A stretch of 64,000 nt of DNA from Desulfosoma sp. (GTDB lineage Bacteria; Desulfobacterota; Syntrophobacteria; Syntrophobacterales; DSM-9756), in NCBI GenBank assembly GCA_037481835.1, contig JBBFKW010000004.1, forward strand, positions 46,569 through 110,568, written 5' to 3'. The notes below the pieces were generated by a model that saw nothing but the letters and a program-made list of their open reading frames with translations, ran no database searches and was not told the DNA's origin. Both the position numbers and the translations under genes were made by a program. This document shows positions 48,529 through 57,490 of this stretch, in pieces (position 1 is the stretch's first letter; every line of letters begins with the position of its first letter).

Positions 48529-49254
48529 TCAGCCAATGTGCGCCTTCTTTCGAACCCTGAGGTTCAACGCTTCCACGAAAACGGAAAAACCCATGGCGAA
48601 GTAAATGTAGCCTCGGTCGATGTGCTTGCCGAACCCTTCGGCCACCAGCATCACCCCGATGAGCAGGAGAAAGCTCAAAGCGAGCATCTTCAACGTGGGA
48701 TGCTTGTCAATGAAGGCGCTGACCATGCCGGCGAAAAGCATCATGGCCCCGACGGCCAAAATGATGGCCGCTATCATGATCGCGATGTGCCGGGCCATCC
48801 CCACGGCAGTAATGATGGAATCCAGGGAAAAGACGAGATCCAATAAAAAAATTTGAAACACCACTGAAAGGAAGTCGGCTGGGGCTTTGAGCCTTTTTTC
48901 CTGGGGCGTCGCCGGCCCTTCCAACTTGTTGTGAATTTCGTGGGTCGCCTTGCCGATGAGAAACAATCCCCCGAGAAGAAGAATGAGGTCCCGTCCCGAC
49001 ATGGGGTGGGACAAGAGGTGAAACAGCGGGGAGGTGAGCCGCATCATAAAAGTGAGGGTCAGAAGCAGACCGATTCGCAGGAACATGGCGCCGAAAAGGC
49101 CGAGTCTTCGGGCCGTCTCCTGCCTTTCCCGGGGCAGGCGTCCGGTGACGATGGCGATGAAGACGATGTTGTCAATGCCCAGGACAAGCTCCATGGCCGT
49201 CAGGGTGACCAGAGCCGCCGCATTTTCCAGGGTAAAGAGGTTTTCCAGCAACAT
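48529..49254 (-). CDS. TerC-family membrane protein
   Basis: ELVLGIDN, GGLFLIGKAT.E, DLVFSLDSIITAVG. Confidence 0.93.
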   Translation of the reverse strand: MLLENLFTLENAAALVTLTAMELVLGIDNIVFIAIVTGRLPRERQETARRLGLFGAMFLRIGLLLTLTFMMRLTSPLFHLLSHPMSGRDLILLLGGLFLIGKATHEIHNKLEGPATPQEKRLKAPADFLSVVFQIFLLDLVFSLDSIITAVGMARHIAIMIAAIILAVGAMMLFAGMVSAFIDKHPTLKMLALSFLLLIGVMLVAEGFGKHIDRGYIYFAMGFSVFVEALNLRVRKKAHIG

Positions 49255-49264
49255 TGCCGCCCTT

Positions 49265-50152
49265 TCAGTACACCTTGAGTGTGCCGTGGCGTTTGCCGAG
49301 GACCTCCAGCGTATCGTTGATGATGACGAAGGCGTGGGGGTCGATGCGAAAAATCGCCTCCTTGAGCTTGGGCAGCTCCGTCAGGGTCGTCACGGTGAGG
49401 ATCACGTCCCGATCTTCTCCCGAATAGCCCCCCGTGCCCTTGAGGAAGGTCACCCCGCGCCGGATTCCGTGAAGAATGAAATCCGCCGTTTCCTGCGCCT
49501 TCGAGGAAACGATCAAGACCATCTTTCGGCGGTTGAACCCCACCATGACGGCATCTACCACACGGCTGCTTGCGTACACGTAAACGATGGAATACAGGGC
49601 CTTCTCAAGGCCGAAGAAATAGCCGCCGATGCCGAGCACGAGGGCGTTTGCCGCCATGTAGGTGATGCCGACGCGAATCCCCCAGCGCGTGTTCAGATAG
49701 ACGGCCAAGATATCGAGCCCTCCGGCGGAGCCCAGGGACCGGAGCATGATACCGCCGCCCACGCCGCACCAGACCCCGGCAAGCACTGCGGCCAAAAGGG
49801 GATCGCTCACCGTGACCGACGGGACCTTGACCCAGGAGGCCGCCAGGGAAAAGAACACCATGCCGAACAGGGTGTATCCCATAAAACGCCGGCTTACGGA
49901 AACCCAGCCCAGGACCATGAGCGGGATGTTGCTCAAAAGATAAAAATGCCCCACATCCACGGAAGGGTAAAGGTAATGCAGGATGACAGCCACCCCGACA
50001 ACGCCGCCGCTCAGGAGCTTTTGCGGGATGAGCACGGCGTTCATGCCGAGCACATAGATGAGGCTTCCCAGAACAATCAAGGACACGTTGACGCCGAGGG
50101 ACTTCCAGTCCCACGCTGCCCGGAGGCGCCATCGCTGTTTCCGTAAATCCAT
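49265..50152 (-). CDS. YitT-family membrane protein (DUF2179 C-terminus)
   Basis: SGGVVG, N.PL, SAGGLDI, RGVT...GGYSG, IDPHAF. Confidence 0.88.
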   Translation of the reverse strand: MDLRKQRWRLRAAWDWKSLGVNVSLIVLGSLIYVLGMNAVLIPQKLLSGGVVGVAVILHYLYPSVDVGHFYLLSNIPLMVLGWVSVSRRFMGYTLFGMVFFSLAASWVKVPSVTVSDPLLAAVLAGVWCGVGGGIMLRSLGSAGGLDILAVYLNTRWGIRVGITYMAANALVLGIGGYFFGLEKALYSIVYVYASSRVVDAVMVGFNRRKMVLIVSSKAQETADFILHGIRRGVTFLKGTGGYSGEDRDVILTVTTLTELPKLKEAIFRIDPHAFVIINDTLEVLGKRHGTLKVY

Positions 50153-50247
50153 ATCCGTCCCTTCCTTGGCCCTGGCGAGTCTGCCGGCTCGGTGCCGGAG
50201 CGTGCAGCCCGGCGGACACGGTGATCCCGCGCGGTCAGCTCGAGGGG

Positions 50248-51810
50248 CTATGAAGCCGCAGCCGCCACGGTTTTGCAATAGATCATTTTATGATCGTCCG
50301 GGGCGTAAAAATCGGGAAGGGAGGCGACCCGAACATAACCGGCATGAAGGTAAAATCGCCGCGTCGGCTCGTATAAGGGTCGAGAGGACGTTTCCACATA
50401 AACTTTTCGGCCTCCGGCGCGCCTTATGGCCTCTTCCGTGGCATGGAGCAGGACCTTTCCGACGCCTCGGCCTTGCCATGCCGGGTCCACCACGATCCAG
50501 TACAGGTCGAATCTCCCGGCCGTCCCTGAAATGGGCCCGTAACACGTATAGCCGACGACGCGGCCGTCGTGTTCCGCCACGATGAAATAATAGCCCGAGG
50601 CGGCCGCCCCCAGGGTGAGATTCTGCCGGGCCAGGTCCCGGGCGACGGCGATTTCTTCCGCATTGAAAAAACCCGTCTCGGCCGCGATCTGCTCGACGGC
50701 ATCCATATCCGACGGCTTCAGATGGGTTCTCAGGGCGAGACCCGGCAGTGGCATGGCGTTGAGGGAGAAGCTCGTTTCCTGTTCGGAAAGAAAGTGCGTT
50801 TCAGAAAGCTTTCGGTCTGACGGTCGCGCTGCCGCGGCATCTTCCACGAGTCGATACACCACTGCGTCCATGTCCAACCCGGCTTGGCGCGCCGCGGCCA
50901 TGAAGCCCGCATCGGGCGAAAGGCACGGGTTGGCATTGATTTCCAAAACCCACGGCCGGCCGTCTTCGTCCACACGAAAATCGATCCGCGCGTAGCCCCG
51001 TAGGCCGAAAAGGTCCCAGCATCGCCGCGCGAGCGCCGAAAGCCGCTCCGCAAGCGCTCCATCTTCCCGGGCCGCCAAAAAAGACCTCACCGTGTGCCTT
51101 TCGGCAAAGGAGCCCTCCGCCCACTTGGCCTCGTAGTCCACAATGCGGTGCCGCTCCGGCTCGAACCCCTCGAAGCGCATCTCCGCCACCGGCAGCACCT
51201 CCACCCCTCCGGGCCGAGCGAGCAGCGCCAGATTGAATTCGCGCCCGTCGATGAAGCGCTCCGCAAAAAACCCTGCCGGTCCGAACCGGTTCCTCGCCCG
51301 GCGGACGGCCCGGTCCCACGCCTCGGGATCGGCCATTGAAACCACCGCCTCCTGGTCGATCCCCACCGAGGCATCTTCCCACAAGGGCTTGACGATGAGG
51401 AGGGTATCCGGGGCCCACGGCGGAGGCGGCCCTTCCGGCTCAAACCACTCCGGCGTAGGCAGACCCCACGCGGTGAGCCACTTTTTGGTGAGCACTTTAT
51501 GGGATGTGCAAAAGACGGCTTCCGTGGGGCATCCCGTGTAAGGGATCCCCTCGACGTCCAAAAGAGCGGGAGCCGTATGGGCCAGCCGCCCGGACCCTTC
51601 CACTGTTTCCACGAGGTTGACGACCACGTCGGGGCCCACGTGACGAAGGGTTCGGCGCATGCCCCCAAGATCCGAATGGAAGGGAAGAAAGATGACATCC
51701 CAGCCGAGCCGCTCCAGAGCCTCACCGATGCATCGGGCCTGGAACAGGACGTCCTGTTCGTCGGGCGGCGCTTCGGGAGGGACGGCGGAATGGAGCACGA
51801 CGGCACGCAT
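50248..51810 (-). CDS. Ddl-like ATP-grasp ligase fused to a C-terminal GNAT acetyltransferase
   Basis: IVKP..EDASVGI, ERFIDGREF, DYEAKW, GYARIDFR, LEINANP; GNAT FDLYWIVV..WQGRGVG, VETSS, FY...GY. Confidence 0.88.
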   Translation of the reverse strand: MRAVVLHSAVPPEAPPDEQDVLFQARCIGEALERLGWDVIFLPFHSDLGGMRRTLRHVGPDVVVNLVETVEGSGRLAHTAPALLDVEGIPYTGCPTEAVFCTSHKVLTKKWLTAWGLPTPEWFEPEGPPPPWAPDTLLIVKPLWEDASVGIDQEAVVSMADPEAWDRAVRRARNRFGPAGFFAERFIDGREFNLALLARPGGVEVLPVAEMRFEGFEPERHRIVDYEAKWAEGSFAERHTVRSFLAAREDGALAERLSALARRCWDLFGLRGYARIDFRVDEDGRPWVLEINANPCLSPDAGFMAAARQAGLDMDAVVYRLVEDAAAARPSDRKLSETHFLSEQETSFSLNAMPLPGLALRTHLKPSDMDAVEQIAAETGFFNAEEIAVARDLARQNLTLGAAASGYYFIVAEHDGRVVGYTCYGPISGTAGRFDLYWIVVDPAWQGRGVGKVLLHATEEAIRRAGGRKVYVETSSRPLYEPTRRFYLHAGYVRVASLPDFYAPDDHKMIYCKTVAAAAS

Positions 51811-51832
51811 CAGCTTGTCCTTTCTCAATGCC

Positions 51833-51940
51833 CCCTCACCCTGCCCTCTCCCCCAAAGGGGGAGAGGGATGTTGCGCACCAGGCAAGCCTGCAACCTTAA
51901 TGACCCTCACCCTGCCCTCTCCCCCAAAGGGGGAGAGGGA
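51833..51940. repeat. Two identical 37-bp palindromic REP-like repeats separated by 34 bp
   Basis: CCCTCACCCTGCCCTCTCCCCCAAAGGGGGAGAGGGA at 51833-51869 and 51904-51940. Confidence 0.85.
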
Positions 51941-52135
51941 AACATCCGGGCACATGGTCTTCCGTTTCGATGGGAATGACGGAAAAATCATGGACCTCCG
52001 CCTCTTCTCTTGATGGGTGTAGGGGGCAAAACAGGATCTGTCGGCCCCCCTTTATAAGGGGAGCGGCACATGCAGGTTCTCGCGTCTCCGCCTCTCGAGG
52101 GTGAGAACGGGAAATTCGCCTTCATTCATGGTTCT

Positions 52136-53113
52136 CTAAGGCGCACACCTTCTGATGGCTTCCTCCAGGATCGTTTCGATGAGCTCCTGGTAGGACATGC
52201 CCACGAGGGTGCACAAGATGGGCAGGTCGGAATGATGGGGATGGAGGCCGGCCAAGGGGTTGGCTTCGAGAAAATGGGGCCGGCCAAAGGCATCGGAACG
52301 CACATCGATACGGCCGGCATCGCGACATCCCAAGACCTTCCAGGCTTCCACGGCGATGCGCTCGGCTTGGCGCGCCTCCTCATCGTCGACCAGCCGATAA
52401 AGGACGCGCTCTTCGCACCATTCCTTGTTGGCGTAGGAATAGACCTCGGCATCGGCGTTGTCCCGAAGGATCACTTCCATCACCCCTACGGGTCGCGCAC
52501 GACGGCCGGTCCCCAAAATTCCCACGGTGAATTCACGCCCCGGCAGAAAGGTTTCCACCAAAACGGGCTGCCGAAACGCGGCCAGGAGCTCTGCGCAGAC
52601 CGCCGCCAGTTCTTGCGAAGTGTGCACTTTGGATGCCGGCGTGATGCCTTTGCCCGTCCCTTCCCGCACCGGCTTGGCGAAAACCGGCCACGGGAGGTCG
52701 AGCTTTTTCAGGTCCTCCCCATGGTCGATGAGGGCGAAGGCCGGCGTGGGCAGCCCGGCGTCGCGCACCATGCGTTTGGCCACCGATTTATCCAAGGTGA
52801 CGCACAAGCCCACGGGATCGGAAAACGTGTAGGGGATGCCGTATGCGTCCAGGAGCGCCGGGACCTGGGCTTCGCGGCCCGAGCCCCGAAGCCCTTCGGC
52901 GATGTTGAACACCAGGTCCCACCGGTGCCCCGAAATCAGCCGTTCCATGAGGTCCTGCAGCCGCCCGATGCGGTCGGTTTCATGCCCCAAGGCTCGGATG
53001 GCCTCTTCCAGGGCGTCCACCGTGTCTCCCCGGTCGAATTCGGCGGTCTCTTCTTCCGAATACCCCTCGGCGAGGTAGACCTCCCGAAGATCATAGGTCA
53101 GCCCGATTCTCAT
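52136..53113 (-). CDS. D-Ala-D-Ala-ligase-like ATP-grasp enzyme
   Basis: VFNIAEG, REAQVPALL, TLDK, KPVREGTGKGI, ETFLPGREFTV, RIDVR, LEANP. Confidence 0.88.
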   Translation of the reverse strand: MRIGLTYDLREVYLAEGYSEEETAEFDRGDTVDALEEAIRALGHETDRIGRLQDLMERLISGHRWDLVFNIAEGLRGSGREAQVPALLDAYGIPYTFSDPVGLCVTLDKSVAKRMVRDAGLPTPAFALIDHGEDLKKLDLPWPVFAKPVREGTGKGITPASKVHTSQELAAVCAELLAAFRQPVLVETFLPGREFTVGILGTGRRARPVGVMEVILRDNADAEVYSYANKEWCEERVLYRLVDDEEARQAERIAVEAWKVLGCRDAGRIDVRSDAFGRPHFLEANPLAGLHPHHSDLPILCTLVGMSYQELIETILEEAIRRCAP

Positions 53114-53124
53114 GGGCCCCTCCC

Positions 53125-54462
53125 CTAAAACGCCCCCCGCGCCACTCTGTGGGGTTCCGCGGGCGTCTCAAAAGCTTTGGGGTACCGAAAGAGGCGGTGT
53201 TCGTAGTTTCGAAGCACCAGGTCATCCCCATCCACACCTTGCACGTAGTCTGGAAGAAGCGGGATTTTGCCGCCGCCTCCCGGGGCGTCCACGACGTAGG
53301 AAGGAACCGCATAACCGGAGGTGTGCCCGCGCAGGCCGTCCATAATTTCCAGGCCGCGGCGGATAGTCGTGCGAAAATGGGCCGATCCGGAAATGGGATC
53401 GCATTGATAAAGGTAATACGGGCGCACACGAAGTCGCATGAGCCCTTGGAAGAGATCCTTCATGGTCTGGATATCGTCGTTGATGCCTTTAAGGAGCACC
53501 GTCTGGCTTCCCAAGGGGATGCCCGCATCGGCCAGCCGGGCGCACGCTTCGGCCGTCTCGGGGGTGAGCTCGTCCGGATGGGTGAAGTGGAGGCTCATCC
53601 ACAACGGATGAAAGCGGCGCAGGAGCCGGACCAAGTCCCGGGTGATGCGCTGGGGCAAAACCGCCGGCACCTTGGTGCCGATACGGATCACTTCCACATG
53701 GCGGATGGCTCTGAGCCGCTCCAAGAGCCAGCCCAGGGCGTCGTCGGCCAGCGTCAAGGGGTCGCCGCCGGAGATGAGCACATCGCGGACGGCGGGGGTT
53801 GCTTCGATGTAGCCCAGAGCCTTTTCCCACTGCCGGCGGCTTGGATGCCCGCCCGCCCCGTGCCGTCCCACGACACGCGACCGGGTGCAGTATCGGCAAT
53901 ACGTGGAACAAAAGCCTGTGACGAGAAACAGCACGCGGTCCGGGTAGCGGTGCACGAGGCCCGGCACCGGGGAATCCTTGTCTTCTCCCAAGGGATCGTC
54001 CGACTCTCCGGGGCTTCGCATCCATTCATCGGGAAGCGGCACCACGGATCGGCGCAACGGCTGCGAGGGATTGGTCTCGTCGAGCAAGCTCGCGTAATAG
54101 GGCGTAATGGCCGCGGGGAAGCGCGATGCCGTGTCGCGCAGGGCTTCCTTTTCCGCCTCCGTCAGACGGAGGATACGGCTTAGGCCGTGAAGCGATCGGA
54201 ACCGATGCTGCACCTGCCAATGCCAGTCGTTCCAAAGAGAGAGGCTGAGGTGGGGAAAATGCTTTTTCTTGAAGGCTTTTGAGAGGTTGCCCATGGGCAT
54301 GGCGGCGGACTTTCGGCCCGAAAGGCCCCGGGACCGCCGCGGGGAAGGTGATGACTCTTCGGGGTCTGAGCCCGGAGGTTCGCTTGGAGGCTCCTCCGTC
54401 TCCGAGGAGTCTTCGCACAGAGAAGATGCGTCCTGTCGCCATGTTCGATCGGTGTTTTCCAT
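53125..54462 (-). CDS. kamA: KamA-family radical SAM aminomutase (lysine 2,3-aminomutase-like)
   Basis: HRYPDR, CSTYCRYCTR, SGGDPL, YYLYQCD, VDAPGGGGK (PLP lysine). Confidence 0.9.
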   Translation of the reverse strand: MENTDRTWRQDASSLCEDSSETEEPPSEPPGSDPEESSPSPRRSRGLSGRKSAAMPMGNLSKAFKKKHFPHLSLSLWNDWHWQVQHRFRSLHGLSRILRLTEAEKEALRDTASRFPAAITPYYASLLDETNPSQPLRRSVVPLPDEWMRSPGESDDPLGEDKDSPVPGLVHRYPDRVLFLVTGFCSTYCRYCTRSRVVGRHGAGGHPSRRQWEKALGYIEATPAVRDVLISGGDPLTLADDALGWLLERLRAIRHVEVIRIGTKVPAVLPQRITRDLVRLLRRFHPLWMSLHFTHPDELTPETAEACARLADAGIPLGSQTVLLKGINDDIQTMKDLFQGLMRLRVRPYYLYQCDPISGSAHFRTTIRRGLEIMDGLRGHTSGYAVPSYVVDAPGGGGKIPLLPDYVQGVDGDDLVLRNYEHRLFRYPKAFETPAEPHRVARGAF

Positions 54463-54778
54463 ATCGACGCCCTTTCCTCGTCCTTATGGTGTTCCCATCC
54501 ACGACCACATCCAGAACCGTTCACACCGCGCTCGGCACGAGGCCGCCGAGGCCGGTCCCGTCGCCCCGAGGGGGCCTTGATCAGCCTAACCGGCACTGCC
54601 GCTCACACGCACGCACCATTTATCCGAAATCCATTTAAAGAAAAACTTTTTTTTATGACCGGTCCCATTCAATGGATAAGCCCCGGACGGGTCGAAACAT
54701 CCCAGCCCGGGGCGGAGCCCCGGGGAAGGGGGCCGGGGATGCGGGCGGACGGAGGAACACGAAGAATCCGTGGGGCGC

Positions 54779-57490
54779 TCAGTTGTGGGCTTCGGCCCAA
54801 TTTTTCCCCCACCCCATGTCCACCACCAAGGGCACACGCAAACGGAGCACCCCTTCCATCCGATCTTTGACCATCTGCCGCACCTCGTCCAGTTCGTCCT
54901 CCGGCACCTCGAAGACGAGCTCGTCGTGCACCTGCAACAACATGGCGGTCGTCAGGCCTCGAAATCGAATCTCCCGGTCAATATCGATCATGGCCTTCTT
55001 AATGACGTCCGCCGCCGTCCCTTGGATGGTCGTGTTGACGGCAAGCCGCTCTCCTTGCTGGCGCACCGTGCGGTTTCGGCTTTGCAGTTCGGGAATGAAT
55101 CGGCGCCGTCCCAAGAGGGTTTCCGCATACCCCCGCTTTTGCGCCTCTGCGACCACCTGCTCGATCCAGCGCTTTACCCCCTGATACTTTTCAAAATACC
55201 GCTCGATGGCCGCCTTGGCGCTGGTCTGGTTGATCTTGAGCTGCTTCGCCAGGCCGTACGGGCCCATGCCGTAAATGATCCCGAAATTGATGGTCTTGGC
55301 ATGGCGGCGCATTTCCGCCGTGACTTCATGGGGCGCCACACCGAACATTTCGGCGGCCGTGCGCCGGTGGATGTCGTCCCCCGCCATGAAGGCGGCCAAG
55401 AGCCGCTCATCGCCGCTGTAGTGGGCAAAGATGCGCAGTTCGATCTGGGAATAATCGGCGGCGAGAAGGACATGGCCCTCATCGGCGATGAACGCTTCGC
55501 GGATGCGGCGGCCTTCCTCGCCTCGCACGGGAATGTTTTGCAGGTTGGGCTCGGAGCTGCTCAGCCGGCCCGTGGCCGTGACGGTTTGGTTGTAACTGGT
55601 GTGGATGCGCCCTGTTTCAGGGTGGACCAAGAGGGGGAGCGCATCCACATAGGTGTTTTTCAGCTTGGCCAGGCTGCGGTAAGCCACGATGTGCTCGGCG
55701 ATGGGATGGTGTGCCGCCAGCTCTTCCAGGACGCTCATGTCCGTCGAAGGCCCCGTCTTGGTCTTTTTAATCACCGGAAGCTGCAACTTGCCGAAGAGGA
55801 CGTCCCTGAGCTGGACGGGCGATTGAATATTAAATGGAGCGCCGGCGATCTCGTAGATGGTCCGCTCTTCTTTGCGCAGCCCTTCTTCAAAAGCTTCCGA
55901 AAGTTCCTTGAGTTTGGCCGTATCCACCCGGACCCCTCGCAGTTCCATACGCGCCAGAACATCGATGAGGGGCCTTTCCAGGGTGTCCATGAGGGTCGTC
56001 AGGCCTGCCTCTTCGAGCTTCCTCCGGAGAATCGGAACGAGCCGAAAGGTACTTTCCGCATCGCTGCAGGCATAGGCGGCGGCGTCGGCGATGGGCACCC
56101 GGGAAAAGGGCACTTCCTTGGCTCCGGATCCGGCCACGTCCCGATAGGCCGCCTTGGGTTCCCCCAGATGCTCGGCCACGATGCGTTCGAGCCGGTGAGA
56201 GGGGTTCCCCGGATCCAGGAGGTAACTCGCCACCATGGTGTCGAAGTCGATCCCGTTGAGTTCCACGCCGTGCCGCTTCAGGACGACCCATTCGTACTTG
56301 ATGTTTTGTCCGACCTTTTTGGGGGTGTCCCCTTCCAGCACGGGCCTGAGCCCCTCCAAAACCCGGGACATAGCCAGTTGCGCTTCACGCTCGGGCCCCT
56401 CGTGGCCCACGGGAATGTAGGCCGCCTCATGCTCCCGCCAACTCAGCGCCACCCCCACGATTCGGGCGCGCATGGCATCCTGGGAGGTGGTTTCCAAATC
56501 GATGGAAAGAACGGGCGCCTGTCGGACTTCTTCCAGGATGTCCCGGAAGGCGGCCTCGGAGAGCACGATGCGGTCGCGTCGTTTCGGCGCATCCCTTTCG
56601 GGGGCGGCCTCCGCCGATGGCGCCTCCCGGGACAGGTCAGCCAGAAAGCGACGCAATCCCAAACGTTCGTAGAGCTCGGCGAGAGCCTCCGTATGGGGGG
56701 ATCCCCTGCGGCACTGAAGCACGTCCAGGTTCACGGGGGCATCGTCCCGCAGGCTCACCAGTTTCCTGGAAAGTACGGCCGCATCCTTTCCCGCTTCCAC
56801 CTTTTTGCGCACCGCCGCGCTGGGAATCTCGTCCAGCCGCCTGAAAAGCTCGTCCAGGGTTTCAAAGCGACGCAAAAGTTCTTCGGCGGTCTTTTCCCCT
56901 ACGCCGGCGATCCCCGGCACATTGTCGGAACTGTCTCCCATGAGCGCCAGGAGATCCCGCACCTGGTCCGGCCGAACCCCGAGGCGTCGGACGACTTCTT
57001 CGGCGGTGAACCATTTATCCTTTTGGGGATCCCACTGGAGCACCCAAGGCTCTTGCACCAGCTGGTGGAGGTCCTTGTCCCCGGAGACAATGACCACGGG
57101 GATTCCCGCTTCCTTAGCCCGCCGAGCCAGGGTGGCGATGACGTCGTCCGCCTCGTAGCCGGGCACTTCCAGGGACGGAATCCCCAGGAGGTCCACCATC
57201 TGTTTGATGATGGGCACCTGCACCACCAGGTCTTCCGGCATGCGGTCCCGCGTGGCCTTGTATTCCGGGTAGGCGGCGTGGCGAAAGGTGGGACCGGGCG
57301 GGTCGTAGACGACGCACAAGAGTTCCGGCTGCTTGTCTTTGAGCACTTTGTGGAGCATCTGGTGGAAGCCGAAGACGGCTTGAGTGGGAGTGCCGTCGGG
57401 TGCCGTGAGACGCCGGCCCATGGCGTAAAAGGCCCGATACATGTAGGAACTGGCATCGATGAGGTAAAGGATCGGCTTTTTCTCCGTCAT
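54779..57490 (-). CDS. polA: DNA polymerase I
   Basis: 5'-exonuclease EADDVI and GDSSDN, DLETT, TGRLSS..PNLQNIP, ADYSQIELR, QVHDELV. Confidence 0.97.
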   Translation of the reverse strand: MTEKKPILYLIDASSYMYRAFYAMGRRLTAPDGTPTQAVFGFHQMLHKVLKDKQPELLCVVYDPPGPTFRHAAYPEYKATRDRMPEDLVVQVPIIKQMVDLLGIPSLEVPGYEADDVIATLARRAKEAGIPVVIVSGDKDLHQLVQEPWVLQWDPQKDKWFTAEEVVRRLGVRPDQVRDLLALMGDSSDNVPGIAGVGEKTAEELLRRFETLDELFRRLDEIPSAAVRKKVEAGKDAAVLSRKLVSLRDDAPVNLDVLQCRRGSPHTEALAELYERLGLRRFLADLSREAPSAEAAPERDAPKRRDRIVLSEAAFRDILEEVRQAPVLSIDLETTSQDAMRARIVGVALSWREHEAAYIPVGHEGPEREAQLAMSRVLEGLRPVLEGDTPKKVGQNIKYEWVVLKRHGVELNGIDFDTMVASYLLDPGNPSHRLERIVAEHLGEPKAAYRDVAGSGAKEVPFSRVPIADAAAYACSDAESTFRLVPILRRKLEEAGLTTLMDTLERPLIDVLARMELRGVRVDTAKLKELSEAFEEGLRKEERTIYEIAGAPFNIQSPVQLRDVLFGKLQLPVIKKTKTGPSTDMSVLEELAAHHPIAEHIVAYRSLAKLKNTYVDALPLLVHPETGRIHTSYNQTVTATGRLSSSEPNLQNIPVRGEEGRRIREAFIADEGHVLLAADYSQIELRIFAHYSGDERLLAAFMAGDDIHRRTAAEMFGVAPHEVTAEMRRHAKTINFGIIYGMGPYGLAKQLKINQTSAKAAIERYFEKYQGVKRWIEQVVAEAQKRGYAETLLGRRRFIPELQSRNRTVRQQGERLAVNTTIQGTAADVIKKAMIDIDREIRFRGLTTAMLLQVHDELVFEVPEDELDEVRQMVKDRMEGVLRLRVPLVVDMGWGKNWAEAHN

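Follow-up and report, generated by a model that had tools for sequence, protein, structure and literature searches.

Several described systems share parts with the locus studied here. AblA and AblB make N-ε-acetyl-β-lysine in methanogens and some bacteria, and Bacillus has a kamA-yodP operon with the deacetylase gene yodQ. In the Pyl pathway, the acceptor used by PylC is the side-chain amine of lysine. Ngg and AsnO reportedly make N-acetylglutaminylglutamine amide (NAGGN), and Ngg is said to be a fusion of GNAT and ATP-grasp domains. Parts of two published accounts present ablA/ablB as an osmolyte route (PMC3543383) and the Pyl pathway as a radical-SAM lysine mutase followed by an ATP-dependent ligase that joins two lysines (PMC8225853). 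Here we analyzed a stretch of 64,000 nucleotides of Desulfosoma sp. DNA (contig JBBFKW010000004.1; the whole stretch is called the window below), which carries a cassette encoding an aminomutase of the lysine 2,3-aminomutase type (KamA), an ATP-grasp ligase with the fold of the D-alanine--D-alanine ligase Ddl (Lig1), and a second, more divergent ATP-grasp ligase (Lig2) fused to a GNAT acetyltransferase domain. We read these genes, with a probability of about 0.5, as a self-contained and horizontally mobile cassette making a small N-acetylated amide derived from β-lysine. As stated in a preliminary description of the locus, no characterized product could be named for this architecture: neither the cassette nor a product was described in the open-access literature searched, whereas subscription journals and bioRxiv supplements were outside the scope of the search and publication there is possible.

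Like AblA/AblB, the cassette pairs a lysine 2,3-aminomutase with a GNAT protein, so that β-lysine would be acetylated, and the pairing of an acetyltransferase with a deacetylase in the Bacillus operon also has a counterpart in some cassettes (see below). Unlike in AblA/AblB, the aminomutase and the GNAT domain are separated by two ATP-grasp ligases, and no match of this GNAT domain to the AblB model TIGR03827 was obtained at E ≤ 0.001. The product of the cassette must be larger than acetyl-β-lysine. The likeness to PylB/PylC/PylD is that a radical-SAM lysine mutase feeds an ATP-grasp ligase making an amide to a second amine. However, KamA belongs to the PLP (pyridoxal phosphate)-dependent 2,3-aminomutases rather than the methylornithine synthases; neither ligase was hit by the PylC model TIGR03909 even at E ≤ 10; the fold match of PylC to a model of Lig1 (Z = 18.4) was below that of Ddl (Z of about 27 to 31) and of many further ATP-grasp families; and the cassette has a second ligase and a GNAT domain instead of a PylD-like dehydrogenase. 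With Ngg/AsnO, the cassette shares the presence of a GNAT domain and an ATP-grasp ligase in one polypeptide, as well as an N-acetylated dipeptide solute as the putative kind of product. The domain order is reversed, with ATP-grasp preceding GNAT in the cassette, and the Ngg model TIGR03103 (cut-off, 569 bits) matched Lig1 with only 29 bits and did not match Lig2-GNAT. In addition, an aminomutase plays no part in NAGGN synthesis, and no amidotransferase gene is linked to the cassette. Functionally, the cassette resembles AblA/AblB, the Pyl pathway, and Ngg/AsnO combined but belongs to none of them.

Conservation of the cassette

The preliminary description proposed a neighborhood survey of KamA, the ligases, and the GNAT domain. 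Among 8000 candidates scored, 2841 were relatives of Lig2-GNAT at E ≤ 0.001, their sources including Desulfoglaeba alkanexedens and Desulfosoma, and at least 627 encoding loci were found for such relatives with one genome per species, of which the best 80 were examined. Linkage was counted in the 60 loci whose sequence extends 2.6 kb or more upstream of Lig2, the other 20 being too short to judge. KamA, Lig1, and Lig2 occurred together in 52 of the 60. Lig1 without KamA was found at three loci, two of which are cut by a contig end while L042 is a real exception; KamA without Lig1 was found at another three (L010, L050, and L051), and neither of them at two (L028 and L061). The GNAT domain adjoined Lig2 in 75 of the 80 loci; it was absent despite sufficient room from L047 and L058, and L062, L075, and L076 end too early. 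The linkage is thus conserved, and the KamA-Lig1-Lig2 arrangement is far beyond chance. According to the labels of the sequence records, the hosts include Thermodesulfobacteriota, Bacteroidota, Planctomycetota, Spirochaetota, Gammaproteobacteria, Kiritimatiellia, Lentisphaerota, Calditrichota, and Aminicenantes.

The adjacent genes are also found as fusions. Among the KamA-Lig1 fusions, P0191 has identities of 63% and 60% to the respective window proteins; among the Lig1-Lig2 fusions, P0125 has identities of 64% and 43%, respectively, and Lig1-Lig2-GNAT fusions exist as well (P0171 and P0182). Since each adjacent gene pair occurs fused somewhere, the fusions argue for one pathway comprising KamA, Lig1, Lig2, and the GNAT domain, whose products probably associate physically.

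All-against-all clustering of the flanking open reading frames (ORFs) of the 80 loci revealed no other gene family conserved across phyla beside the cassette. The next most frequent neighbors, PHO4 and PhoU_div, were found in 11 to 12 of the 80 loci, which, by the labels of their records, come largely from related genomes of the Smithella/Syntrophales type. The YitT, TerC, and MscS genes downstream of the cassette in the window had been taken earlier as a weak hint of an osmolyte role. These three genes and polA were linked to the cassette in none of the 80 related loci, nor did they lie beside the cassette of a relative from the same order, for which 7.7 kb upstream and 1.7 kb downstream were available. 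An osmolyte role argued from the neighbors was therefore dropped.

Within the phylum of the window, a relative of Lig2/GNAT (E ≤ 1e-40) was present in 53 of 151 sampled genomes, representing 39 of 111 genera. Its presence was mostly all or none within the families listed, a pattern that fits vertical inheritance after occasional transfer.

KamA, the two ligases, and the GNAT domain

KamA aligned with the Clostridium lysine 2,3-aminomutase of known structure (PDB 2A5H) at E = 2e-129. It carries the radical-SAM motif CSTYCRYC (CxxxCxxC) and the PLP-lysine motif GGGGK, and its YQCD and VVDAPGGGGK segments are identical to those of 2A5H in the alignment. Asp293 and Asp330 of 2A5H reportedly bind the ε-ammonium group of lysine. 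The presence of both lysine-type Asp residues, on which the β-lysine assignment was first based, was borne out beyond the window: when the window KamA was aligned with 52 cassette KamAs, CSTYCRYC, the Asp of YQCD, and the Asp and Lys of DAPGGGGK were all at least 95% conserved. KamA exceeded the subfamily cut-off of TIGR00238 (357.1 versus 199.2 bits), and it scored best on the lysine model TIGR03820 (480.7 bits, versus 417.8 and 387.1 for the glutamate and arginine aminomutase models, respectively). The match to TIGR03820 spans model positions 4 to 359 of 417 and leaves the C-terminal part unmatched; no CxCxxC motif is conserved in the tails that follow GGGGK in the aligned cassette KamAs. 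At the other end of the protein, residues 1 to 55 (positions 54298 to 54462) form a Ser/Pro/Glu-rich extension that most relatives do not have, and most tblastn matches begin near residue 61. The ATG at 54462 is preceded by a purine-rich ribosome-binding site, and Met55 or Met57 could be the true start.

A quick maximum-likelihood (ML) tree of KamA was built from 46 rows, comprising the window protein, 27 rows from a sample of 41 genomes of the phylum, and one in three of the 52 cassette KamAs, after two short rows had been dropped. The window KamA fell within a clade of 23 rows, all 23 of them cassette linked, with an SH-aLRT (Shimodaira-Hasegawa-like approximate likelihood ratio test) support of 100, and the other KamA paralog of the same genome grouped with unlinked copies. 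At least two more distant cassette types (L144/L145 and L149/L150; genomes G011, G002, G010, and G003) lie outside the main cassette clade. At these four loci, KamA is 50 to 55% identical and the ligases are about 30 to 50% identical to those of the window. In genomes G018, G037, and G012, such a KamA and a ligase pair are found on separate contigs.

The known outlets of β-lysine are not located at the cassette, in agreement with the preliminary description, which had seen no efp, epmA, kamDE, or mur genes nearby. The second KamA paralog (contig C1:177561-178514; 357 amino acids [aa]; 49% identity) keeps both Asp residues and lies beside cysS and an MFS gene. EpmA (genX) is encoded at C10:110996-111862 and scored above its cut-off with 318 bits. 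These two are likely the pair responsible for β-lysylation of EF-P, and because EF-P would thus be served by a separate KamA, the KamA of the cassette appears to be dedicated to it. The best genome-wide match to the AblB model reached 20.1 bits against a cut-off of 205.1, with none at the cassette, and KamD was not found in the genome by a search run without a positive control.

Lig1 and Lig2 both matched PF07478, the C-terminal Pfam domain of Ddl (70.5 bits for Lig2), and neither matched the N-terminal domain PF01820. On the best Ddl model (NF002378; cut-off, 243 bits), Lig1 scored 151.7 and Lig2 scored 100.7 bits, and both remained under every Ddl, VanA, and VanC cut-off. A phylogeny of the ligases against true Ddl had been suggested at the outset. 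In a quick ML tree of 102 rows, made of 29 Ddl sequences (all from the phylum of the window), 33 Lig1 sequences, and 40 Lig2 sequences (for the two ligases, alternate orthologues and the window proteins; a Ddl locus of insufficient length was dropped), Ddl, Lig1, and Lig2 were each split off by a branch with an SH-aLRT support of 99, which places both ligases outside the Ddl clade. An AlphaFold2 (AF2) model of Lig1 with a confidence score (pLDDT) of 93.9 had the Ddl fold, with a TM score of 0.79 to DdlB (8EVZ). Fold searches with this model ranked Ddl first (Z of about 27 to 31), followed by LysX/ArgX (about 25), RimK (22.7), L-amino-acid ligases (about 21 to 22), and PylC; they yielded nothing pointing to a substrate, and matches in the ESM Atlas were only to clusters named "D-alanine--D-alanine ligase family."

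The active sites of the two ligases were compared in an alignment of 63 Lig1 and 78 Lig2 orthologues with the Ddl encoded by the genome, in which the positions Glu15, Tyr216, and Leu282 follow E. coli Ddl numbering. Both retain the ATP-grasp catalytic set (Lys, Arg, Asp, Glu, and Asn). The invariant residues are K109, K147, K230, R268, D270, E283, and N285 in Lig1 and K105, K141, K229, R275, D277, E290, and N292 in Lig2, where the ATP-grasp K, E, R, D, E, and N residues are invariant among homologues. An acidic residue at the Glu15 position is likewise kept, within AEFD in Lig1 and DExD in Lig2. However, the Tyr216 position is occupied by Glu in Lig1 and Trp in Lig2, the Leu282 position is an invariant Asp in Lig1 (HSDLP), and Lig2 has an invariant NPCLSPDAGF loop. 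Because the catalytic set is kept while the Tyr216 and Leu282 positions are changed, the sequences indicate that Lig1 and Lig2 are competent ligases with remodeled substrate pockets.

The Pfam and NCBI names of both proteins, which read "D-alanine--D-alanine ligase family," would suit an explanation in which they are spare D-Ala-D-Ala or D-Ala-D-X ligases of cell wall synthesis, placed beside KamA by coincidence. The resemblance to Ddl and VanA lies in the fold of Lig1 and in the catalytic residues and Glu15-equivalent acidic residue of both ligases. It does not extend to PF01820, to the family cut-offs, which are far from reached, to the clades, or to the substrate-pocket positions, and the cassette ligases never occurred in a mur/dcw context here. 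The genome also has a canonical Ddl on contig C1 (PF01820 present; PF07478, 194 bits), as do all 41 sampled genomes of the phylum, and the linkage and fusion with KamA are conserved. We therefore regard a coincidental cell wall function as extremely improbable.

The GNAT domain scored well above the Pfam cut-offs (53 versus 20.7 bits for PF00583 and 53.4 versus 27 bits for PF13508) and contains the sequence QGRGVG, the acetyl-CoA pyrophosphate-binding loop (motif Q/R-x-x-G-x-G/A). At E = 8e-35, it matched PDB 2R7H, which was deposited as a "putative D-alanine N-acetyltransferase of GNAT family," and no functional paper on that structure was found in the open-access literature searched. Its best named family was RimI, at 39.4 bits against a cut-off of 86.4. 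A match to RimI, even one so far under the cut-off, together with the fact that the nearest folds to Lig1 after Ddl, those of LysX/ArgX and RimK, belong to enzymes acting on proteins, might indicate a posttranslational modification, in which one or both ligases would attach β-lysine or a β-lysine peptide to a protein, as RimK, LysX, and EpmA do, and the GNAT domain would acetylate the modified protein. This is improbable, given that Ddl is clearly the closest ligase family, that no candidate target gene is conserved beside the cassette, that EF-P already has its own EpmA and KamA paralog in the genome, and that the deacetylase found in some cassettes is of a type acting on small-molecule polyamines (see below).

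Accessory genes and the predicted product

A divergent GNAT domain fused to an HDAC-type domain, here called the deacetylase module, was encoded in 16 of the 80 loci. At 11 of the 16, the module lies in front of the cassette GNAT in the same polypeptide, the five-part cassette of L073 encoding a GNAT-HDAC-GNAT protein of 752 aa (L073:9841-12099); at 2 others, it is cut by a contig end. The remaining three loci, L008, L031, and L082, have it inserted between KamA and Lig1 or, where the contig ends there, immediately upstream of Lig1. The best solved relatives of the deacetylase domain were acetylpolyamine amidohydrolases (APAHs; 6PHR, 1e-76; 9GKZ, 2.5e-72; 3Q9B, 4e-62), which matched over the whole domain. 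The substrates of APAHs are small aliphatic polyamines acetylated at a terminal amine. The accessory domain differs from them in that it belongs to a β-lysine cassette and shares its polypeptide with one or two GNAT domains. By homology, the GNAT-APAH module points to a small amine substrate, and because the accessory deacetylase is of the APAH type, the acetyl group would be expected on the ε amine of a small molecule.

Other accessory genes were less frequent. A putative Zn/Fe-chelating CxxCxxCC protein of 170 to 230 aa (PF03692) was encoded in 5 of the 80 cassettes (L017, L021, L034, L043, and L060; e.g., L034:6298-6987), and its gene separates KamA from Lig1 wherever the contig includes the two, while in L017 it directly precedes Lig1. 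The protein might donate electrons to the radical-SAM enzyme or assist it in another way. A gene for a small membrane protein of the DMT_6 (DUF486) family adjoins Lig2 in three loci of the Smithella/Syntrophales type (L055:8999-9346, L057:1270-1620, and L062:9859-10194), lying between Lig2 and GNAT in L055 and L057 while the contig of L062 ends just past it, and remnants were seen in L048 and L072. The DMT_6 protein could transport the product or a substrate. Because of the APAH-type deacetylase and the small DMT membrane genes inside some cassettes, a protein or a cell wall precursor is a less likely target than a small molecule.

In the proposed pathway, KamA would isomerize L-lysine to β-lysine, a step that is well supported by homology. 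The two ligases, descended from Ddl without being Ddl, would then form two ATP-dependent amide bonds involving β-lysine. Lig1 probably acts first because it is the partner fused to KamA, and Lig2 probably acts second because it is fused behind Lig1 and ahead of GNAT. The amide partners are likely common amino acids or more β-lysine, since no precursor-supply gene is conserved alongside. The GNAT domain would finally move an acetyl group from acetyl-CoA to a free amine, most likely the terminal (ε) amine of the β-lysine unit, which would neutralize its charge or shield an activated intermediate from cyclization or oligomerization. The predicted product is a soluble cytoplasmic N-acetylated β-lysine di- or tri-amide, whose acetyl group could be stripped again by the linked APAH-type enzyme in about a fifth of the cassettes, though not in this genome. 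It may serve as a stress-protective solute or a regulated cation. The preliminary description had likewise supposed that β-lysine is ligated and then acetylated; the three genes as a conserved functional unit, seen in 52 of 60 loci and in the fusions, and the non-Ddl nature of the ligases support that idea, while its osmolyte component, drawn from the neighboring genes, was lost.

Several points weigh against this reading. Everything past the first step is inferred from sequence, fusions and gene order do not prove the order of reactions, and the site of acetylation is argued solely from the type of an optional deacetylase. The score of KamA on TIGR03820 lies under the equivalog cut-off for AblA (480.7 versus 525.4 bits; NCBIfam), and the tails of the cassette KamAs after GGGGK are short, so that lysine specificity is likely but not proven. 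Some loci are short of one part, with no adjacent Lig1 in L010 and L051, no GNAT nearby in L047 and L058, and Lig2-GNAT alone in L028 and L061. In the window itself, a spacer of 322 bp bearing repeats like repetitive extragenic palindromes (REPs) may uncouple Lig2-GNAT from kamA-Lig1. Finally, many hosts apparently come from freshwater, peat, groundwater, and digester samples according to the sequence-record labels, which does not favor a salt-specific osmolyte.

The accessory deacetylase would also be expected if the end product were a free cationic, polyamine-like β-lysine amide. Acetylation would then be transient, blocking the ε-amine during carboxylate activation, or would give an inactive storage form, and the deacetylase would release the active compound. 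The presence of an APAH-type enzyme in 16 of 80 cassettes, in many cases fused to the cassette GNAT, is consistent with this alternative. In the Desulfosoma genome, which has no closer homologue of the module, four distant HDAC-family paralogs of about 30% identity could act in trans. Still, a deacetylase gene is missing from 64 of the 80 cassettes, the window's included, and the cassette does not clearly complement the spermidine genes in the 151 phylum genomes. We consider the free amide to be a rather unlikely end product. In the comparison with polyamine genes, in which the genomes are related and the counts are hence not independent, speE-like genes were present in 20 of 53 cassette-positive and 41 of 98 cassette-negative genomes, nspC in 6 of 53 and 22 of 98, and either of them in 26 of 53 and 63 of 98, respectively. 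A replacement of polyamines by the cassette was set aside for want of clear complementarity.

The use of two different ligases with no conserved precursor-supply genes could also mean that a polymer is made, all the more so as β-lysine, judged from its chemistry, should be able to condense with itself through two amines and one carboxylate. Such ligases would build oligo- or poly-β-lysine or a mixed chain, similar to cyanophycin, as a nitrogen store or polycation, and the GNAT domain would cap the chain. Neither ligase is closer to a known polymerizing ATP-grasp enzyme than to Ddl, however, and no primer, granule, or depolymerase gene is linked to the cassette, which makes a polymer quite improbable.

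Within the preferred reading of a small N-acetylated β-lysine amide, we tentatively suggest that the product might be an acetyl-capped β-lysine oligo-amide of a new metabolite class, for example, two or three β-lysine or lysine units joined via side-chain amines in a PylC-like manner. To strict anaerobes of a dozen phyla, it might be a general cytoprotectant or a polycation that can be switched; the GNAT domain and the APAH-type deacetylase would then form a dedicated on/off pair for a small molecule.

Organization of the locus and meaning of the cassette

The gene order on the minus strand of the window is polA, kamA, Lig1, the 322-bp spacer, Lig2-GNAT, YitT, TerC, and an MscS/MscK-like channel gene (Table 1). 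All ORFs of the cassette were present in the same orientation, as described before, and the gap between kamA and Lig1 was exactly 11 bp (53114 to 53124). The long ORF of Lig2-GNAT opens at a TTG at 51894, the start used previously. Judged by its homologues, the start is likely the ATG at 51813 instead, because 20 of them and an identical database record of 520 aa begin with MRAVVLH.

Table 1. Features of the cassette and its surroundings in the window
Feature	Position	Strand	Basis
polA	54779-57490	-	
KamA, radical-SAM/PLP enzyme of lysine 2,3-aminomutase type (likely lysine specific), 445 aa	53125..54462	-	PF04055 + PF12544
Lig1, Ddl-fold ATP-grasp amide ligase, not a D-Ala-D-Ala ligase, 325 aa	52136..53113	-	PF07478 only
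Lig1-Lig2 spacer, unusually long, with two 34-nt REP-like palindromes	51814..52135	-	Sequence
Lig2, second, more divergent ATP-grasp domain, residues 1-345 of the 521-aa fusion	50779..51813	-	PF07478
GNAT domain fused to Lig2, residues about 361-520 plus stop codon	50248..50733	-	PF00583, PF13508
polA-kamA intergenic region: GC-rich hairpin after polA, A/T-rich stretch, purine-rich ribosome-binding site	54463..54778	-	
YitT	49265-50278	-	
TerC	48529-49254	-	
MscS/MscK-like channel, 858 aa	45928-48504	-	

The two REP-like palindromes in the spacer lie at 51833 to 51866 and 51904 to 51937 (minus strand). The genome contains 14 copies of this palindrome (≤4 mismatches), which are often paired at distances of a few hundred bases or less. 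Since the median gap between Lig1 and Lig2 in 67 related loci is only 25 bp, the spacer is a local insertion, and its repeats may stabilize or uncouple the transcript. A promoter and terminator scan found no promoter-like site and no T-tailed terminator in the spacer, terminator-like sites being at the level of shuffled sequence. Upstream of kamA, no Rfam match in the intergenic region reached its gathering score, and the fold z-score was +0.62. Neither result gave evidence of a leader RNA or riboswitch. The best Rfam match in this region, to Acido-Lenti-1 (54679 to 54724, minus strand; 23.1 bits versus a gathering score of 37; E = 0.051), is probably due to chance.

The MscS-family channel, whose N-terminal region is long, is closest to MscK (233.5 bits, under its cut-off); its residues 27 to 229 gave weak matches of the coiled-coil type (SMC and EzrA). 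The DNA of the window itself recurs in hot-spring and sediment metagenomes.

The cassette comprises only three or four genes, and relatives of Lig2-GNAT occur in at least 627 species genomes, yet no product has been assigned in the open-access literature searched. Identification of the product would add an outlet for β-lysine beside acetyl-β-lysine, EF-P modification, fermentation, and antibiotics. It would also define the substrates of two large clades misnamed "D-alanine--D-alanine ligase" and would give a function to the structural-genomics protein 2R7H.

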